From IMG/VR virus record IMGVR_UViG_2734482535_000008: a stretch of DNA of 8,644 nt. One strand, 5' to 3'. The translations under genes were made by a program, and so were the position numbers. This document shows, in pieces, positions 1,833-8,644 of this stretch. Each line of letters opens with the position of its first letter. Position 1 is the stretch's first letter. Origin of the DNA: a virus. Lineage: Duplodnaviria > Heunggongvirae > Uroviricota > Caudoviricetes. The notes below the pieces were generated by a model. That model was not told where the DNA came from. It ran no database searches and saw only the letters and a list, made by a program, of their open reading frames with translations.

Positions 1833-2615
1833 TTATGCTGCCCTTTTCATTGCGAATGGAACGCGAACAAACACGATCTCTTTATAGCAGCGGCAGTTTG
1901 GCAGCTCGCCCGCGTGGCCGGTCATGCCGTCCAAAGTTGGAGGTGAATCCCAGCGGACGAATTTACCTTTCATGTGATCGTGGGAATCTCGGACATCGCC
2001 ATCATCGGCTGTACGCCAAATATAACCATCCGAGCCAATAGCTATCGCTCGGGCCATATCCAGCGCGCCCGTTGCTCTTCCCAGTTCCGTTCGGGCAATC
2101 AGATCGGCCCTAGACTTAGCAACATCGCCGGTAGATGCAATCTCTTTAGCAAACTGCTCCGCCCGACCACCGGTGACAACAGCCTCTATCGCTTTGTTCT
2201 GGATGTCGTACACCCTGTCTGCGGCCTCGAGAGGCAGAGATTTGATGTACTTGACCTGTTCGGCGATGATGGATTGCATCACCTGGCCCACAGGAGCGCT
2301 TTCCACAAGATTGCGGAGCTCGCGACTGATGTTCTTGCTGTGTTGCCGCCAAACTTTCTCGTTCTGCCGGGTTAGGTCCGCAGTAAAGTTTTCCGCGACC
2401 TTTGTCGCCCAGGGGGTGATGATTTCACTGTAACGCTCCAGCGCCGCAATAATTTCCGTGATACTGTCATTTGAACCATCGTAGCGACCATTTACGATGT
2501 CTCCGACCGCCCTCGCTATCCTGCGTAGGCTGGTTCGATACCGGATTTCCGCCTGACGGCTCCTGCGGTTCGTCATCAGGTTCGCCGATGCCGGGCGGCG
2601 CTTCATCTTCGGCAT
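1833..2615 (-). CDS. Phage head morphogenesis protein (Mu gpF / SPP1 gp7 family minor head protein)
   Basis: 260-aa ORF located directly after the portal gene, as in the Mu gpF / SPP1 gp7 family; the sequence has the general look of that family, but I cannot name a specific conserved motif from memory. Start is ambiguous (ATG at 2615, 2606 or 2576); every candidate overlaps the portal 3' end by at least 110 nt. Confidence 0.78.
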   Translation of the reverse strand: MPKMKRRPASANLMTNRRSRQAEIRYRTSLRRIARAVGDIVNGRYDGSNDSITEIIAALERYSEIITPWATKVAENFTADLTRQNEKVWRQHSKNISRELRNLVESAPVGQVMQSIIAEQVKYIKSLPLEAADRVYDIQNKAIEAVVTGGRAEQFAKEIASTGDVAKSRADLIARTELGRATGALDMARAIAIGSDGYIWRTADDGDVRDSHDHMKGKFVRWDSPPTLDGMTGHAGELPNCRCYKEIVFVRVPFAMKRAA

Positions 2616-3549
2616 TCTCGATGTCCTCGTCGGTAATGGATGCCCCGATGCCGGTTACGTCAGAATTTTCTCGCAAATCAGTCATAGCGGCTTTCAGTGT
2701 CATCAGACCATCACCCAGCGCCGTACTGATTGCGTTGGTGGTGTTTAACGCCACCGTTGAGCGATCGACATCAGACATTTGCCAGAGCGGGTTAAACTCA
2801 AACGTGAAATCGTCCGGCAGCGGCTTGCCAAGTTCCGAACGATGCATGATGTCCAGTATCCGCCGCACCGGAAGACGTAAACGCCTCTCCTGCAACGAAC
2901 TGATGCGATCGTAATAGTTGGCAAGGTCTGCATCACCGGTAGAAAATCCTTTCGGGGACTGTCCGAACAACCGCACCAGTGGGATACCAACAGCGCCACT
3001 AATCTGTTCTACAAACTGCGAAAGGATGTCATCCAGACCACTGAAGCTGTACTGATGGGTTTCAAACTTATCCCGCGAGTCCATGAGCGTCATGCCTTCA
3101 TTACTCTGGAACTGTCGAATCAGGTCGATATTCTTCAGCAACGCTTCATACGCAGGACCACCAAGTGCGATAAGCTCGCGTAGCTTCTCCACGCTGTAGG
3201 TACGCAAATGCGCCTTGTAGACCAGCTGCGCCGCGCCGACAGTAGCGCTGTCGAACGCGGTAAGACGATCCCAGATACGCTCTACAACCGACATTCCCCA
3301 TTCGTTCTCGGTCATCTTCTGCTGAAATGGCAACGTGACGCCATCAAAGCGAATCAGGCGACTGTGATGAATGCGCCAGGCAGGAATTCCCGTTGCTGTG
3401 GTCACCACATCGTAAAACTCAGGTTTACCCAGGTCCGGCCCCATATCTTTAATGCGGCGGGTCAGTGCCGGGTCGACCATCCAGCGGTCGAGCGGGAGAA
3501 TCCCCTTAAACTTGCCCTTACCGATGGTTTCGGGTCGCAGCGGGGTCAT
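2467..3549 (-). CDS. Phage portal protein, intact C-terminal 360-codon ORF of an interrupted portal gene
   Basis: 360-aa ORF in the portal position immediately after terL. It is in the same reading frame as 383 nt of upstream coding-like sequence that reaches an ATG overlapping the terL stop (see the pseudogene feature). Acidic Pro/Glu/Asp-rich C-terminal tail. Confidence 0.7.
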   Translation of the reverse strand: MTPLRPETIGKGKFKGILPLDRWMVDPALTRRIKDMGPDLGKPEFYDVVTTATGIPAWRIHHSRLIRFDGVTLPFQQKMTENEWGMSVVERIWDRLTAFDSATVGAAQLVYKAHLRTYSVEKLRELIALGGPAYEALLKNIDLIRQFQSNEGMTLMDSRDKFETHQYSFSGLDDILSQFVEQISGAVGIPLVRLFGQSPKGFSTGDADLANYYDRISSLQERRLRLPVRRILDIMHRSELGKPLPDDFTFEFNPLWQMSDVDRSTVALNTTNAISTALGDGLMTLKAAMTDLRENSDVTGIGASITDEDIENAEDEAPPGIGEPDDEPQEPSGGNPVSNQPTQDSEGGRRHRKWSLRWFK

Positions 3550-3933
3550 TGGTGCCTACCCCTCAATCATGATGAAACCCACCGCGCCGCCGTAGAGGCG
3601 CGACCATTTCAGCACGTCATTCAGCGCATCCCAGATTTGCAACTCATCCAGTTGTGATTCGAGAATGCCACGATCTTTTGCATCAATTTCCGAAGTGATG
3701 CGAATGCCTTTGCGGGTCATATCATCCGGGATAGCATCGACTGCTTCGCCGATGATCTAGGATGAACGATAGGACCATTCCACCAGCATGCGGTTACGAC
3801 TGGTGAAATTAGCCCGGTAGGTGGATGCTGAGTGCTGGTTAGGTGTCTGCATCCCTACGCGGGCAATAAAATTCTCATAACCATCAGCTGTGGCCTGCAC
3901 AGTTCGCCGCAGGGCTTGTTTGTTTCGTGCCAT
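2467..3933 (-). pseudogene. Full-length portal reading frame (489 codons) interrupted by two in-frame TAG codons at 3759-3757 and 3558-3556
   Basis: My manual minus-strand translation from ATG 3933-3931 (overlapping the terL TGA as ATGA) gives MARNKQALRRTVQATADGYENFIARVGMQTPNQHSASTYRANFTSRNRMLVEWSYRSS*IIGEAVDAIPDDMTRKGIRITSEIDAKDRGILESQLDELQIWDALNDVLKWSRLYGGAVGFIMIEG*AP, then the MTPLRPETIGKG ORF, all in one frame. 489 codons is a normal portal size. Confidence 0.65.
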
Positions 3934-5363
3934 CAGGCCTGTCTCCCCAGCTGTTCCCAGATATCCAGCGATGTATCGATTGGCGCGAAGGCCATAATGA
4001 ATGCATCAGCAACGTTTGGTGACGGTATCTCGCGTTTTGCGAGGTCTTTTTTACTTTCGACCATCACACGTCCGTTACGGTCGAAATCACGATGAGGTGT
4101 TGTCAGTTCCAGTTTCAGCTTTTCAAGCAACGGACAACGAGAATCTATGCTGATCAGCTCATCCACAGGATACTGTTCTCCGTTGTTAATGGCGTTAAAC
4201 GTATTTCTGAAACGGTCAGCCACCAGCCACCATGCCTGAGCCTTAAGATTTGCGAAAAAGTCTTTGTTGGGGATGCCGTTGTACTCGTCATCTGGCTCAT
4301 GCACACCAGCACCGGCGTTAAACCTCTGGTAATTCACACGTCGCGCGTATGCGTTCTCGCTCTTCCGGTCAGCGTTAATTTCAGAGAATTTAGCACCGGC
4401 AGACGCACCAACACCGATAGAGTCGTAAACAATATCTGCTTCACGCTCCAGCGCCGCCTGATAAGTACGCTGGCAGCTCTTCAGTAATTCATCTTCTTTG
4501 GCCTTCCATTCGTCGGCCCAGAAAACAACGGATCCGTGACGGTAAACGTTAGCGCACTTATCTGTACCACTGTCAGCCACGTCAAAGCCAATACGCTTTC
4601 TTCCACTGGGTTCGAAATTTAACGTTTTGTGCGCATCCACTGCGGCTTCTATCCAAGACAGTTTGATGATTGCCGCATCATCATCAGACTCCGGAACGCC
4701 CTCATACACATGTTTAAAACCATCCGGATCACGGCGTCGCGCCGCGTCGATAACCTTAAGCATGGTGTCAGACAGAAACGGATTTTCGTCATAGTTAATT
4801 TTGCGGATGAGAGTGCCTTCGGGCGGATCAACAACGAAGTTGCGCCAGACGAAATCAGTAACAAGTCCGGGGTTGAATATGAACCAGCATTCCGAACCCT
4901 CTTTACGGATCGTTGGCTCCAGAATTTTCCACTGGTATTCCGTCAGTGCGTGGGCTTCTTCCAGCCACAACACATCGATCCCCTCCAGTGACTTAATTTC
5001 TTCGATGTTGCGCCATAATCCATAAAAAACAAATTCCGAGCCAGTAACCCGGTTAATGATTTTGTTGTTCAGAATACGGAAACGGTGCCGCAGACCAAAC
5101 CTGTCTATCTGAATTTTGAGCAGGGTATACACCGACTCTTCGATTTTATTCTGGATCTGACGGGCACAACAAAAACGCAGGGTGTATTTATTCGACAGAA
5201 ATATGGCAATGCCAGCGGCATCCCATGATTTTGACGATGACCGACCACCATAAAGCACTTTGTTACGTGCCCGCATAGTCCAGAAACTACGTAAAGCCGG
5301 ATTCAGCGTCGGTTTGGATGTCAGAGTAGAAGTCATTGAGGTCACGCTCTCCATTGCCATCAT
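3933..5363 (-). CDS. terL: Phage terminase large subunit (PBSX / Terminase_3-type ATPase-nuclease)
   Basis: N-terminal Walker A-like KVLYGGRSSSKSWD and a downstream LWLEEAH Walker B-like/DExx segment. The ORF is open to 5444, where the track used a TTG start. I prefer ATG 5363 (AGGT 5-8 nt upstream); ATG 5336, 5354 or 5375 are also possible. All overlap the terS 3' end. The stop overlaps the portal ATG. Confidence 0.88.
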   Translation of the reverse strand: MMAMESVTSMTSTLTSKPTLNPALRSFWTMRARNKVLYGGRSSSKSWDAAGIAIFLSNKYTLRFCCARQIQNKIEESVYTLLKIQIDRFGLRHRFRILNNKIINRVTGSEFVFYGLWRNIEEIKSLEGIDVLWLEEAHALTEYQWKILEPTIRKEGSECWFIFNPGLVTDFVWRNFVVDPPEGTLIRKINYDENPFLSDTMLKVIDAARRRDPDGFKHVYEGVPESDDDAAIIKLSWIEAAVDAHKTLNFEPSGRKRIGFDVADSGTDKCANVYRHGSVVFWADEWKAKEDELLKSCQRTYQAALEREADIVYDSIGVGASAGAKFSEINADRKSENAYARRVNYQRFNAGAGVHEPDDEYNGIPNKDFFANLKAQAWWLVADRFRNTFNAINNGEQYPVDELISIDSRCPLLEKLKLELTTPHRDFDRNGRVMVESKKDLAKREIPSPNVADAFIMAFAPIDTSLDIWEQLGRQA

Positions 5364-6051
5364 CAATACCTGCATCACGGCGAAGACGATCAGCCTCCAG
5401 AGACACCTTATCAGTGGCGGCCTTGCGGTAGGCTGTATCAGCAAATATTTTTCCTACCGTCGCAAGCGTGCCAACGATGGACTCAATACGAACTGTATTG
5501 CGCATCATTGCTTTCTCGGCGGCGCTGATATTTTCAATCAGCATCTTCCTTTCCTGGTCCCCATTAGCATCTTCCAGCGACACCAACCACCGACCAATAT
5601 TCTCTGCAGCGACAAGGTTGTTAGCACGAAGGCGAAATAATTCGTCCTCGAGCGTCAACGCTTTAGCGTCCTCTATCACCTCATCTTTGAGCAGAAGGCG
5701 ACGGGCATAACCACCGTGTTTTAATGCCTGCTGGTTACCGGGTTGGAATGGGTTAGTCGGGGGATCGGTACGCATTCCGCGTATCGGTTTCGTATCCGGT
5801 GTAGATTCTGTTTTTAGTTGCGTACTTTTTTGTGTAAGGCCAGTAATGGCAGGCTTTCTGCTGGTACGCACTTTCCTTTTTTGCGTACCATTTTTGCAAA
5901 CCTGCGTACCGCCACTGCGTGCCCAACCAAGCTTTTTGGCCCTCTTCCTGATAGCCCCTTCTGTAACGCCGTATTTCTCGCCTATATCACGGAGGCTAAG
6001 GACTCCGGCCCGGTATGCCGATTCGATGGCCTCCCAGTCCGGTTTTGCCAT
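5287..6051 (-). CDS. terS: Phage terminase small subunit with N-terminal helix-turn-helix DNA-binding domain
   Basis: N-terminus AIESAYRAGVLSLRDIGEKYGVTEGAIRKRAKKLGW is a typical terminase small-subunit HTH. It sits immediately upstream of and overlaps terL. AGGAAG Shine-Dalgarno 8 nt before the ATG at 6051. Confidence 0.82.
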   Translation of the reverse strand: MAKPDWEAIESAYRAGVLSLRDIGEKYGVTEGAIRKRAKKLGWARSGGTQVCKNGTQKRKVRTSRKPAITGLTQKSTQLKTESTPDTKPIRGMRTDPPTNPFQPGNQQALKHGGYARRLLLKDEVIEDAKALTLEDELFRLRANNLVAAENIGRWLVSLEDANGDQERKMLIENISAAEKAMMRNTVRIESIVGTLATVGKIFADTAYRKAATDKVSLEADRLRRDAGIDDGNGERDLNDFYSDIQTDAESGFT

Positions 6052-6248
6052 GATTATGCTTCCTGTGATTTACTGTTATCGCTGCCTGTCACAATAGGTT
6101 GCTTTAATTCTTCCTCATCACTCACTCCTGCGACGCTCCGTGGCAGGGCCCCCCACAGGAGTACCTTGTAAATGTAAGGTGTTTAAGCCTAAATTAAGTC
6201 GTATCACGGTTAAATAGCAAAGAAAAATTCACAGAAGGAAAGACATTG

Positions 6249-6758
6249 ATGGAGTGGATAAATGCTTTGATGAACTATTTTGTACTTCATCCATATCGCC
6301 TATGGGGGCTTCTTTTTATAATAGCGTTCACAAAATCCACTTTACTCATTTCGGCGATATTGCCACCAGCATCAATTATGATGGCCACTGTAATTACAGT
6401 CAGCAAGACGACTCTTTCACCATGGGAAGCTGGAATCACGGTCATGAGTGGCGCATGGTGCGGTACTATCGTTAATTACCATCTTGGTATAATAATTGGG
6501 CATATCCCTCAACTTGCATGTATAATATCAAGCCGTTCCAATACAATAGAACGGGTTCGCCTTCAGTTGCAAAATAACTCTGTGTCAATACTTTTCACTT
6601 CGCGCTTTATCGCCGTGCTGCGTTATATTGCTCCTTTGGTGGCAGGAATGTTGCAACTTCATCCAGTGAAAGTGTATACAGTGAGTCTGATTTCAGCTGC
6701 TAGCTGGTCAGCACTTTATGTTGGTAGTTTTAGCTTCGTGTTGCCTTTTTTTAGCTAA
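6249..6758 (+). CDS. AT-rich cargo gene: 169-aa multi-pass inner-membrane protein with DedA/VTT-domain-like motifs (YqaA-like small DedA)
   Basis: The only plus-strand gene, antisense to the phage late operon. AAGGAA Shine-Dalgarno 9 nt before ATG 6249 (the track's 6246 start is a TTG one codon earlier). Visibly lower GC than the flanking genes. About 5 hydrophobic segments. SRFIAVLRYIAPLVAGM resembles the DedA re-entrant motif G-R-F-x-x-x-R-x-x-x-P-x-x-AG, and ILPPASIMMATVITV resembles the N-terminal LPGDS region. Family assignment is my pattern match, not a search. Confidence 0.72.
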   Translation: MEWINALMNYFVLHPYRLWGLLFIIAFTKSTLLISAILPPASIMMATVITVSKTTLSPWEAGITVMSGAWCGTIVNYHLGIIIGHIPQLACIISSRSNTIERVRLQLQNNSVSILFTSRFIAVLRYIAPLVAGMLQLHPVKVYTVSLISAASWSALYVGSFSFVLPFFS

Positions 6759-6846
6759 ACTGCCCATAAAAAGCTCTTGCGAATCCAGCTTCCCCCATTC
6801 CTCTGACAACAGAATCTGATTTGAAGGATAATGAGTAAAATTACCG

Positions 6847-7317
6847 CTACCCCCCAAGGCATTGGATCCTGATGTACTCCTGAAGCATTCTCAATGCTGT
6901 CTGGTCGCTGATGATTCCGTCCCGGATACCGAGAACGTTTCGTCCAGCAACTGGAGAGAGTTCGACGGTGGCATCATTGCCCATGCCGGAGGCGCTGGAG
7001 GTTTCGGCTGAGGATGGCACAGGGCATTTTCCTTTGACGAACACCCGACCACCATTATCAAGCTTGCGCCGAAGAGCATCATTTTCAGCTTTCGCATCAG
7101 CTAACTCCTTCGTGTATTTAGCATCGAGTGCATCAGCATCACGCTGGCGCTGCTGCATGTCAGTAATGGTTGCGTTCGCCAGCTTCAGTTCTCTTGCGTT
7201 TTTGTCGCGCTGCTCTTTGTAGGTAATGGCGTTATCACGGTAATGATTAACAGCCCATGACAGGCGGACGATGATGCAGATAACCAGAGCGGAGATAATC
7301 GCGGTGACTCTGCTCAT
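6847..7317 (-). CDS. Rz: Rz i-spanin (inner-membrane spanin subunit)
   Basis: [54 protein letters not shown] is closely similar to lambda/P21 Rz: an N-terminal transmembrane segment followed by a coiled-coil. ATG 7317-7315 overlaps the endolysin TGA (ATGA). The track ORF starts 4 codons earlier at 7329. Confidence 0.88.
6891..7097 (-). CDS. Rz1: Rz1 o-spanin (outer-membrane lipoprotein), embedded in the +1 frame of Rz
   Basis: [23 protein letters not shown] has a signal peptide and VVGC lipobox followed by a Pro-rich [11 protein letters not shown] segment, as in lambda Rz1. Strong AAGGAG Shine-Dalgarno 7 nt before ATG 7097. Lies wholly inside Rz. Confidence 0.85.
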
Positions 7318-7811
7318 TGCTGCCCCCACAAACAGACTTCACGCTCAATCTCACGACGGGTCATCAGCCCTTTCCATTGCTTACCGCCAGCATATGTCCA
7401 GCGACATAGCTGGTCACATGCGCCTTTGATATAGCCCTGGTTTATTTTGCGAAGAAGCGTCGATGTTCTGAAATTGCCAGCGCCCACGTTGTAAACGAAC
7501 GAGTAAAGAGCGCCGCGCGTTGTTTCCGGTATATCGACTTTGATGTACGGGTTAATTTGTCTGGCGACAGTGGCAAGGTCTTTATTCAGGAGGGCTTTGC
7601 ATTCTGCTTCGGTATACGTTTTACCGAGCATGATGTCTTTTCCGGTGTGTCCGTGACATACAGTCCATACACCAATGATATCTTTGTATGGTATGTAGCT
7701 GACACCTTCCAGACCATCGTTACCACCTGGGCCAGTGATTAACACAGATGCTATAGCAACAGCCCCACCACCAATAGCAGCTGCAACAGCCTTGCGTAAT
7801 GATGGCGACAT
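7314..7811 (-). CDS. R: SAR endolysin (phage 21 R-type lysozyme, T4-lysozyme / GH24 fold with N-terminal signal-anchor-release domain)
   Basis: Near-identical to my memory of phage 21 R: Gly/Ala-rich SAR segment [20 protein letters not shown] followed by [25 protein letters not shown] carrying the Glu/Asp/Thr catalytic positions. ATG overlaps the holin stop (TAATG). Confidence 0.92.
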
Positions 7812-8026
7812 TATTCACCTCTCGCAGCCTTACGCTTGTCTTCTCTTATTTTGAAATACAGATTTGTCAGATAAGTCAGAAGCCCCAGAAGCAGACTTCC
7901 CAGCACACCAATCGCAGCCCACTGTGATGGACTGACCTGATCCAACCACTGCAAAAACCAGTAGCCGGCACTGCCGGCGGAGGTGCCGTAGGCAATGCCT
8001 GTTGATATTTTTTCCATCTGATACAT
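7811..8026 (-). CDS. S: Class II pinholin (phage 21 S21-type) with dual-start motif M1-Y-Q-M4
   Basis: [71 protein letters not shown] closely matches S21 68/71: two transmembrane domains and a charged C-terminus. Two in-frame ATGs three codons apart, at 8026 and 8017. Confidence 0.92.
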
Positions 8027-8056
8027 ATCCCGCCCCCCGACAGACCTGTGCTATCG

Positions 8057-8570: not shown

Positions 8571-8644
8571 TGAAGTGGCACACTGAATTTGGCCACCTGA
8601 ACAGAGGTGATATGCTCACCTCAGAACAACACAGGTGCTCCAAT
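8571..8644 (+). mobile_element. IS911 (IS3 family) left end, 74 bp; element continues beyond the window end, with the orfA ATG beginning at 8642
   Basis: 8571-8644 reads TGAAGTGGCACACTGAATTTGGCCACCTGAACAGAGGTGATATGCTCACCTCAGAACAACACAGGTGCTCCAAT, which I recognise as the IS911 left inverted repeat and orfA leader. It has the IS3-family terminal TGA. Recognised from memory. Confidence 0.82.

Follow-up and report, generated by a model that had tools for sequence, protein, structure and literature searches.

The stretch of DNA analysed here, called the window in what follows, comprises 8,644 nucleotides of a viral record from IMG/VR (IMGVR_UViG_2734482535_000008) and contains, at positions 6249-6758 of the plus strand, an open reading frame (ORF) for a small membrane protein of the DedA family. 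From its position, composition and neighbours, this gene is recognised as a moron that occupies the bor slot in a lambdoid prophage of Shigella flexneri/Escherichia coli, which is now defective. The DedA family, the moron concept, the slot and the RefSeq label of the protein as DedA are already known. DedA proteins have recently been tied to the recycling of undecaprenyl phosphate (UndP), the indispensable lipid carrier for synthesising the cell wall and surface glycans, and have been linked to colistin resistance, alkaline tolerance and virulence. A search of the literature found no paper on a phage-borne DedA gene, on the clade of DedA proteins described below, on its Glu-to-Lys signature or on its PhoP-type promoter. 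The explanation that seems best as a whole, held at slightly better than even confidence, is that this moron gene would be activated by PhoP in the lysogen and that its product would move an anionic lipid phosphate in the service of envelope remodelling.

A moron in the bor slot

The ORF starts with ATG, ends with TAA and encodes a product of 169 amino acids (aa). It is the sole substantial plus-strand gene in the window; the minus strand carries the holin, lysozyme, Rz/Rz1, terS-like, TerL, portal and head genes, and because the flanking genes are all on the minus strand the DedA gene is antisense to late transcription. Its GC content is 0.418 (0.382 at third codon positions, GC3), versus 0.485-0.552 (GC3 0.46-0.61) in the flanking phage genes. 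An earlier note on this DNA had described an AT-rich, plus-strand gene of 169 aa with its own Shine-Dalgarno sequence, carried as moron cargo between the lysis cassette and terS and opposing late transcription, and in all these points it was right: the ATG is at 6249, the stop ends at 6758 and AGGA stands 9 nt upstream.

The gap between Rz and terS measures 798 bp in the window, versus 208 bp with a 45-aa ORF in Klebsiella phage ST16-OXA48phi5.2, whose Rz and terS are homologous. Other relatives have a 142-aa ORF or a GrlR-like gene at this junction, and since related phages carry different genes there, the Rz-terS junction is a variable cargo space. The layout is equal to that of bor in phage lambda and of borD in the K-12 prophage DLP12, both of which lie directly after Rz/Rz1 and before the packaging genes, on the opposite strand and antisense to late transcription. 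The same note had considered the arrangement a non-standard module, which is true of the cargo, an unusual one, but not of the location, which is the standard slot of bor and borD. The likeness to bor does not extend to the products, because Bor is an outer-membrane lipoprotein whereas the DedA gene product is a polytopic inner-membrane protein.

The search for the gene at the same junction in other prophages, proposed in the earlier note, gave a 78%-identical homolog in a Citrobacter youngae prophage, in the same lysis/terS slot and on the opposite strand. The backbone of that prophage is a different one, with a lambda-type GpA terminase, a GH19 endolysin and other holins. The region 6174-6768 of the window is 82% identical to the C. 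youngae prophage locus (L011) and 78% identical to the C. freundii locus L002, and the similarity stops sharply at both ends. The unit that moves is this segment of about 595 bp, consisting of the promoter region plus the ORF, and it is also common to the non-phage chromosomal copies. No DNA matching 6052-6250 was found in the phage collection.

Morons have been defined as extra DNA of distinct composition with its own promoter and its own terminator (PMC3594210). Extra DNA is found here at a conserved junction, and its base composition is unlike that of the surrounding genes. As regards an own promoter, a conserved upstream element and a -10-like hexamer, TTAAAT, travel with the gene; a consensus scan gave no -35 match upstream of TTAAAT and no canonical sigma-70 promoter. 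No terminator of the gene's own was found.

A GC-rich inverted repeat, CTCCTG...CAGGAG, lies at 6126-6161, in the 115 bp that separate terS from the shared cassette. This 115-bp stretch is particular to this prophage and unmatched in the phage collection, and the fold of the repeat is only modestly better than that of shuffled sequences (z = -1.7, minus strand).

Distribution, origin and selection

The exact protein is present on at least 1,000 contigs, mostly of S. flexneri, and the gene was found in 6 of 5,426 complete E. coli genomes. It is absent from 50,697 deposited phage genomes, where the search gave nothing but dedA genes of 30% identity, located at the ends of two Acinetobacter records. 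Neither of the outcomes that the earlier note had named as refuting its reading was obtained: the match to DedA is significant, and these phage genomes do not have the gene. Several 'plasmid' records that match the protein are chromosomal DNA, among them L002 (NZ_CP056259.1) and the PLSDB records NZ_OL790811/12 and NZ_CP077849; the 82-kb Citrobacter record carries icd, purB, mnmA and phoPQ, and the Proteus and Acinetobacter records are about 4 Mb long.

The ratio of nonsynonymous to synonymous substitution (dN/dS) against the Citrobacter copies is 0.14-0.24, the comparison between the two phage-borne copies included. The gene is under purifying selection, and these values, together with the number of contigs that carry the exact protein, make it more than a chance ORF. 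C. amalonaticus, the C. freundii group, Proteus, Arsenophonus and the enterobacterium L040 have homologs of 167-180 aa in ordinary chromosomal surroundings, and the gene was probably captured from enterobacterial chromosomes. It had been suggested that it might be a fragment of a captured host gene; the capture stands, but not the fragment, because homologs of the same length in ordinary chromosomal contexts, themselves under purifying selection, indicate a full-length host gene.

The prophage itself is defective, because its portal gene has two nonsense codons. With respect to the intact copy at locus L008 these are W59 (TGG to TAG) and Q126 (CAG to TAG), and the two copies differ by only 3 aa overall. 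Insertion sequence (IS) insertions are also among the signs of decay.

The protein and its relatives

The DedA/VTT resemblance noticed earlier was confirmed by a match to the Pfam family VTT_dom (PF09335) with E=9.2e-14 and 52.4 bits, above the curated gathering cut-off of 33.9, covering residues 41-161 of the protein and profile positions 3-121 of 123. PF09335 is present in 19/19 homologs, and RefSeq has already given WP_011069285.1 the name 'DedA family protein'. The polytopic character that had also been put forward is borne out by the hydropathy profile and by an AlphaFold (AF2) model built from a 58-sequence alignment (predicted local distance difference test, pLDDT, 86; predicted template modelling score, pTM, 0.82), both of which indicate a polytopic helical membrane protein. 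The model has long helices at residues 15-30, 58-85 and 139-168 and helix-loop-helix hairpins at 32-52 (tip PPAS) and 111-134 (tip R119). Two re-entrant helices plus three transmembrane (TM) helices are the defining topology of DedA proteins (PMC10127716), and the modelled fold shows this DedA/VTT core only. The two motifs picked out in the earlier note, ILPPAS (residues 37-42) and SRFIAVLRYIAPLVAGM (residues 118-134), are indeed the tips of the two re-entrant helices, but ILPPAS is diverged, Glu having been replaced by Lys and PGD by PPA.

Bacterial DedA proteins were split into three subfamilies by Todor et al. (PMC10127716): COG0586, to which proton-driven UndP flipping is assigned and in which PAP2 fusions occur; COG0398, without acidic residues and without one or both Arg; and COG1238, in which the acidic residues are kept and there is no Arg. 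A subfamily hidden Markov model (HMM) of the present clade scored 60.6 bits on YabI, 58.4 on DedA, 57.8 on YqjA and 43.7 on YghB, all of them COG0586 paralogs, and 11.8 on YdjX, 8.4 on YqaA and -1.2 on YdjZ, which belong to COG0398/COG1238. The protein is assigned to a tiny Enterobacterales offshoot within COG0586, the UndP-flippase type: an exhaustive HMMER search of 1.84 billion representatives gave only 12 at E<=1e-30, and the next-nearest relatives were DedA-PAP2(-LssY_C) fusions of about 670 aa.

It shares the VTT/DedA core fold with E. coli YqjA, YghB, DedA and YabI and with Bacillus subtilis UptA, COG0586 giving the best profile matches. It differs from these paralogs, to which it is only 17-23% identical: the proton-binding Glu (E39) is replaced by Lys and PGD (D51) by PPA, the N-terminal insert and the C-terminal TM helix are missing (169 versus about 220 aa), and the gene is carried by a prophage. 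The Proteobacteria fusions, which score about 72-86 bits, resemble it in that they keep the Arg pair and are often without the Asp (having Ala, Ser or Thr instead); in contrast to it, they are multidomain proteins of about 650-700 aa that retain the Glu, and none was seen on a phage. Handling of UndP is supported by these relatives, because the nearest outgroups are DedA-PAP2 phosphatase fusions, which are cited as such evidence in PMC10127716.

The residues essential in YqjA/YghB are E39, D51, R130 and R136 (PMC10846249), and PMC10846249 and PMC10127716 describe the functional roles of these residues. Three gapless alignments, independent of one another, all pair K29 with YqjA E39, P40-A41 with G50-D51 and R119/R125 with R130/R136. 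Re-entrant helix 1 holds K29, P40 and A41, and re-entrant helix 2 holds the two Arg, which as in YqjA are placed at its tip within an RF..R..P..AG motif. R119 and R125 are separated by six positions within SRFIAVLRYIAPLVAG and do not vary in the clade, so that the Arg pair of COG0586, believed to bind the lipid phosphate, is present; the acidic residues of COG0586 are not, the replacements E39 to K29 and D51 to A41 (PGD to PPA) being equally invariant. Of 146 relatives that were aligned, 128 have Glu at the E39 position, and Lys occurs solely in the 15 clade members. The clade is read as a fourth residue combination, with the acidic residues gone and both Arg kept, and it amounts to a natural charge-reversal mutant at the putative proton-coupling Glu, which makes the coupling model directly testable.

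These replacements also give rise to a different explanation, according to which the protein would be a transport-dead DedA paralog that modulates the host DedA proteins by forming mixed dimers or by sequestering UndP, and so rewires envelope synthesis. A Glu that is essential in YqjA/YghB has become a Lys of opposite charge and PGD is lost (PMC10846249), dimers are thought to form among DedA proteins (PMC10127716), and the C-terminal helix of the 220-aa paralogs is absent from the 169-aa protein. Nevertheless, YabI, a member of COG0586, is likewise without the Asp, and the Lys and PPA are invariant across Citrobacter, Proteus and Arsenophonus; together with strong purifying selection on the whole protein, this invariance fits an activity of its own better than a poison subunit. 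This explanation is regarded as quite improbable.

The upstream region and PhoP

The PhoP box is TGTTTA-N5-TGTTTA (PMC5913352). In the promoters of architecture I described by Zwir et al. (PMC3335776) a single box in direct orientation, (T/G)GTTTA-N5-(T/G)GTTTA, stands 12 nt (11-13) before the -10 and replaces the -35. The alignment of the DNA upstream of the DedA homologs revealed the conserved islands GTGTT.A.G, GATT.AG and TTAAAT, which are kept even in a 57% homolog with otherwise unalignable upstream DNA. These islands, corresponding to the half-sites of the box and to TTAAAT, include a direct repeat whose period is 11 bp and which agrees with the PhoP box.

Counted from the conserved ATG, the compound site (box and -10) lies between -63 and -69 in 8 promoters and at -84 in L058. 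The geometry from box to -10 is repeated in the Citrobacter copies (9-10/12, 12 nt) and in L040, L057 and L059, and with 11-nt spacing in L058. L040 counts among the eight promoters after its start was moved to the family-conserved Met: the called start of homolog P0011 (L040 8001-8036) adds 11 residues that are not in the rest of the family, the called ATG overlaps the predicted -10 hexamer TCTAAT, and the Met at 8034 is the likelier true start. Besides, the divergent homologs L057-L059 carry extra upstream boxes (12/12, 12/12 and 11/12), which corresponds to architecture II.

A control scan of 448 kb gave only two 12/12 boxes, those of the phoP promoter and of borD. The recovered phoP autoregulatory box, GGTTTATTAAATGTTTA, is located at L002 17451-17467, 78 nt ahead of the Citrobacter phoP start codon, and because this box was recovered the scan is considered to find genuine sites. 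In both lambda bor and K-12 borD the box is perfect (12/12), stands at -69 and is separated from the -10 by 12 nt, and borD is a PhoP-activated member of the PhoP regulon (PMC5740661, PMC11495068). The DedA gene resembles them in having a putative promoter of its own, in which a PhoP-like box at -69 from the ATG is followed after 12-13 nt by a -10-like hexamer. However, the box is 12/12 in bor and 9/12 in the DedA gene, the promoters are not homologous in sequence, and that of the DedA gene travelled with the gene from the chromosomal copies.

A similar likeness exists with the horizontally acquired genes activated by PhoP in Salmonella (such as virK, mig-14, pcgL and ybjX; architecture I/II), which are also AT-rich and foreign (PMC3335776). 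Their promoters have the PhoP box in place of the -35, 12 nt before the -10, and a second upstream box is seen in the distant DedA homologs. In the Salmonella genes, whose products are unrelated, PhoP binding and regulation have been shown experimentally, whereas for the DedA gene they are predicted. As judged from the comparison of promoters, the subfamily has good support for control by PhoP; for the window copy, which has the degenerate proximal box only, such control is plausible. The supplements of a paper on the S. flexneri phoPQ transcriptome held no entry for the DedA gene. With its bor-like promoter of the PhoP type, the gene suggests that cargo connected to the host's envelope-stress regulon comes to occupy this prophage slot repeatedly.

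Two other candidate elements in this region were discarded. One register resembles the PmrA box CTTAAG-N5-xTTAAT (PMC3973317), and it was rejected as the register is not conserved in the Citrobacter copies. A lambda-operator-like 'TATCAC' in the promoter was dismissed by inspection, there being no second half-site.

On the reverse strand, a PhoP-box-like repeat, TTTTTATGGGCAGTTTA (10/12), is located just past the DedA stop at 6756-6772 (-). One of its half-sites takes in the TAA stop, and it falls inside the 10 bp conserved 3' of the ORF. At the homologous spot of C. freundii, L002 10508-10524 (-), the PhoP-box-like repeat is TATTTATGTCTGGTTTA (11/12).

A possible magnesium connection

In two lineages, the enterobacterium L040 and Arsenophonus, the DedA homolog adjoins an mgtE gene with an M-box riboswitch, a neighbourhood that constitutes a weak second link to Mg2+. 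Universal synteny with mgtE was rejected, since Proteus, C. amalonaticus and the C. freundii group do not have it. Control of the DedA gene by the M-box was also rejected, as the M-boxes precede the neighbouring mgtE genes, and no M-box was found in the window or in Proteus.

Related to this, the protein could serve in the homeostasis of Mg2+ or other divalent cations and not in the recycling of a lipid carrier, as a cation-linked transporter or membrane factor supplied by the phage for fitness at low Mg2+. PhoP-type promoters answer to low Mg2+, homologs stand beside M-box-controlled mgtE in the two lineages mentioned, Mg2+ and Ca2+ rescue yqjA/yghB mutants of Klebsiella, and XdfA of Xanthomonas has been connected with the maintenance of magnesium (PMC10846249 and its reference 76). 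The linkage with mgtE is limited, however, to 2 of at least 5 chromosomal contexts, and the M-box governs mgtE, not the DedA gene. Moreover, a phosphate-carrying lipid is indicated by the two Arg that are kept and by the relatives fused to PAP2 (PMC10127716), and a cation-binding site is less likely given the change from Glu to Lys. A role in cation homeostasis is considered unlikely.

Proposed function

The protein is probably an envelope factor of lysogenic conversion that acts as a lipid-phosphate transporter. In the mechanism that is favoured, the DedA gene would be transcribed from its own activator-dependent promoter, independently of late transcription and opposite to it. This promoter would most likely be activated by PhoP, the box lying 12-13 nt before the -10 and the -35 being absent, as in bor/borD. 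Synthesis of the protein would take place in the lysogen when PhoPQ is induced, namely by low Mg2+, antimicrobial peptides, acid or osmotic upshift. It may bind an anionic lipid phosphate via R119/R125 and move it across the inner membrane, UndP being the likeliest substrate, and this transport would take place without the canonical proton-coupling Glu. The benefit for the host would be envelope remodelling.

A number of points weigh against this mechanism. The bare 9/12 match to the PhoP box is not significant (10 matches versus 6.3 expected in the window at 3 mismatches); such a match was rejected as evidence, and the weight rests on conservation, geometry and the perfect boxes in homologs. 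The window copy has a 13-nt and not a 12-nt spacing and a decayed second half-site, it does not have the strong upstream box of the distant homologs, and TTAAAT is without the conserved A at position 2 of the -10; in this copy, control by PhoP may be weak or have disappeared. Without the essential Glu, transport could be altered or abolished instead of proton-independent. No solved DedA structure was found in the PDB for comparison with the AF2 model, and there is no mgtE neighbour in Proteus or C. amalonaticus. On the plus strand beyond 6758 there is no terminator-like hairpin, and 6745-6870 does not fold better than shuffled sequence (z = +1.1). Finally, the DedA ORF is intact at 26/26 loci, with Rz, lysozyme, holin, TerL and portal intact at 8-14 of the 26, a count biased by the retrieval of these loci via the intact protein.

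Some of these observations are what would be expected of a captured gene that hitch-hikes without a current function, or of a regulator of the timing of phage lysis. The prophage is decaying (portal nonsense codons, IS insertions), no terminator was found, the PhoP-like box is degenerate in the window copy, and the gene adjoins the lysis cassette. Against these readings stand the low dN/dS values (0.14-0.24), which also hold between the two phage-borne copies, an ORF that is intact wherever it is found while its neighbours decay, its conserved putative promoter, its place on the strand opposite to the lysis genes, and homologs with no lysis genes nearby. This is the least probable of the explanations weighed here.

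Another role to be considered is that of a superinfection-exclusion or anti-phage membrane protein that shields the lysogen, for instance by blocking DNA entry at the inner membrane. Morons of the late region are often exclusion or defence genes (PMC3594210), and an inner-membrane product encoded opposite to the late genes would suit such a role. No PADLOC defence-system family, however, was matched at E <= 1, close and distant homologs are found in non-phage chromosomal contexts under purifying selection, and the promoter looks stress-regulated and not constitutive. Exclusion is held to be highly improbable.

A more specific form of the favoured lipid-phosphate mechanism is rather unlikely: that the protein is a phage-spread, PhoP-switched and proton-uncoupled UndP scramblase, in which the change from Glu to Lys would let the lipid carrier recycle when the proton-motive force or Mg2+ is compromised. 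If this were true, the protein would act during attack by antimicrobial peptides or during the remodelling of lipopolysaccharide driven by PhoPQ/PmrAB inside host cells. It would then represent an unrecognised class of lysogenic-conversion factor that raises tolerance to envelope stress or polymyxin in S. flexneri.

A DedA gene that phages carry among Citrobacter, E. coli and Shigella, and that has remained whole in a great many S. flexneri genomes amid the decay of the surrounding prophage, is a candidate accessory factor for fitness or virulence in a major pathogen. If the gene were silent or inert, the case would be that of a well-documented moron only.

Features of the window and further observations

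The features of the DedA locus and of the late region around it are collected in Table 1, together with the mgtE neighbourhoods of two homologs.

Table 1. Positions of the DedA gene, its control elements and the surrounding prophage genes (window coordinates unless a locus is given)
Feature	Position	Strand	Remarks
Portal gene (DUF1073/Phage_portal_3)	2467-3933	-	Two in-frame stops, at 3757-3759 and 3556-3558
terS-like small terminase gene	5287..6051	-	Divergent from the DedA gene; next late gene past the moron
Moron block, absent from Klebsiella phage ST16-OXA48phi5.2	6059..6856	.	Homology to ST16-OXA48phi5.2 stops at 6058 and resumes at 6857; block GC about 0.42
Mobile unit common to Citrobacter copies	6174..6768	+	75 bp promoter/leader, ORF and 10 bp past the stop
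PhoP-box-like direct repeat TGTTTAAGCCTAAATTA	6180..6196	+	9/12 consensus, direct orientation, -69 from ATG; position kept in all homolog promoters
-10-like hexamer TTAAAT	6210..6215	+	13 nt past the box (12 nt in Citrobacter copies); invariant in upstream alignment
Shine-Dalgarno AGGA	6236..6239	+	9 nt ahead of ATG; AGGAG at the equivalent place in Citrobacter copies
DedA/VTT-family inner-membrane protein, coding sequence	6249..6758	+	RefSeq WP_011069285.1; key residues K29, P40, A41, R119, R125
Rz (i-spanin), last gene of lysis cassette	6847..7329	-	PF03245 Phage_lysis; convergent with the DedA gene
Rz1 lipoprotein ORF, embedded in Rz	6891-7097	-	Lipobox LIMVVGC, Pro-rich tail
Lysozyme	7314-7811	-	Late lysis cassette
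Class II holin	7811-8026	-	Head of late lysis cassette
mgtE with M-box (RF00380) beside DedA homolog	L040 6512-7743; L042 8810-10050		112 and 108 bits; gene pairs divergent in one, tandem in the other

The relatives of the terS-like gene in Salmonella phage SEN34 and in Klebsiella phages bear the annotation of terminase small subunit. At 6533-6554 (-), on the strand of the late transcript within the DedA ORF, there is a hairpin resembling a terminator, CCGTTCTATTGTATTGGAACGG, with a weak T tract behind it; in this region such sites occur at chance level.

The last 74 bases of the window (8571-8644) recur in L005, L025 and L030 beside transposase genes of the HTH_Tnp_1 and rve families, and the end of the window is recognised as the terminus of an IS3-family insertion sequence. 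In L005, which belongs to one Shigella/E. coli genome, the prophage integrase (4322-5392) adjoins a ybhC-like pectinesterase gene and aconitase-family genes, and these neighbours suggest integration near the lambda attachment site.

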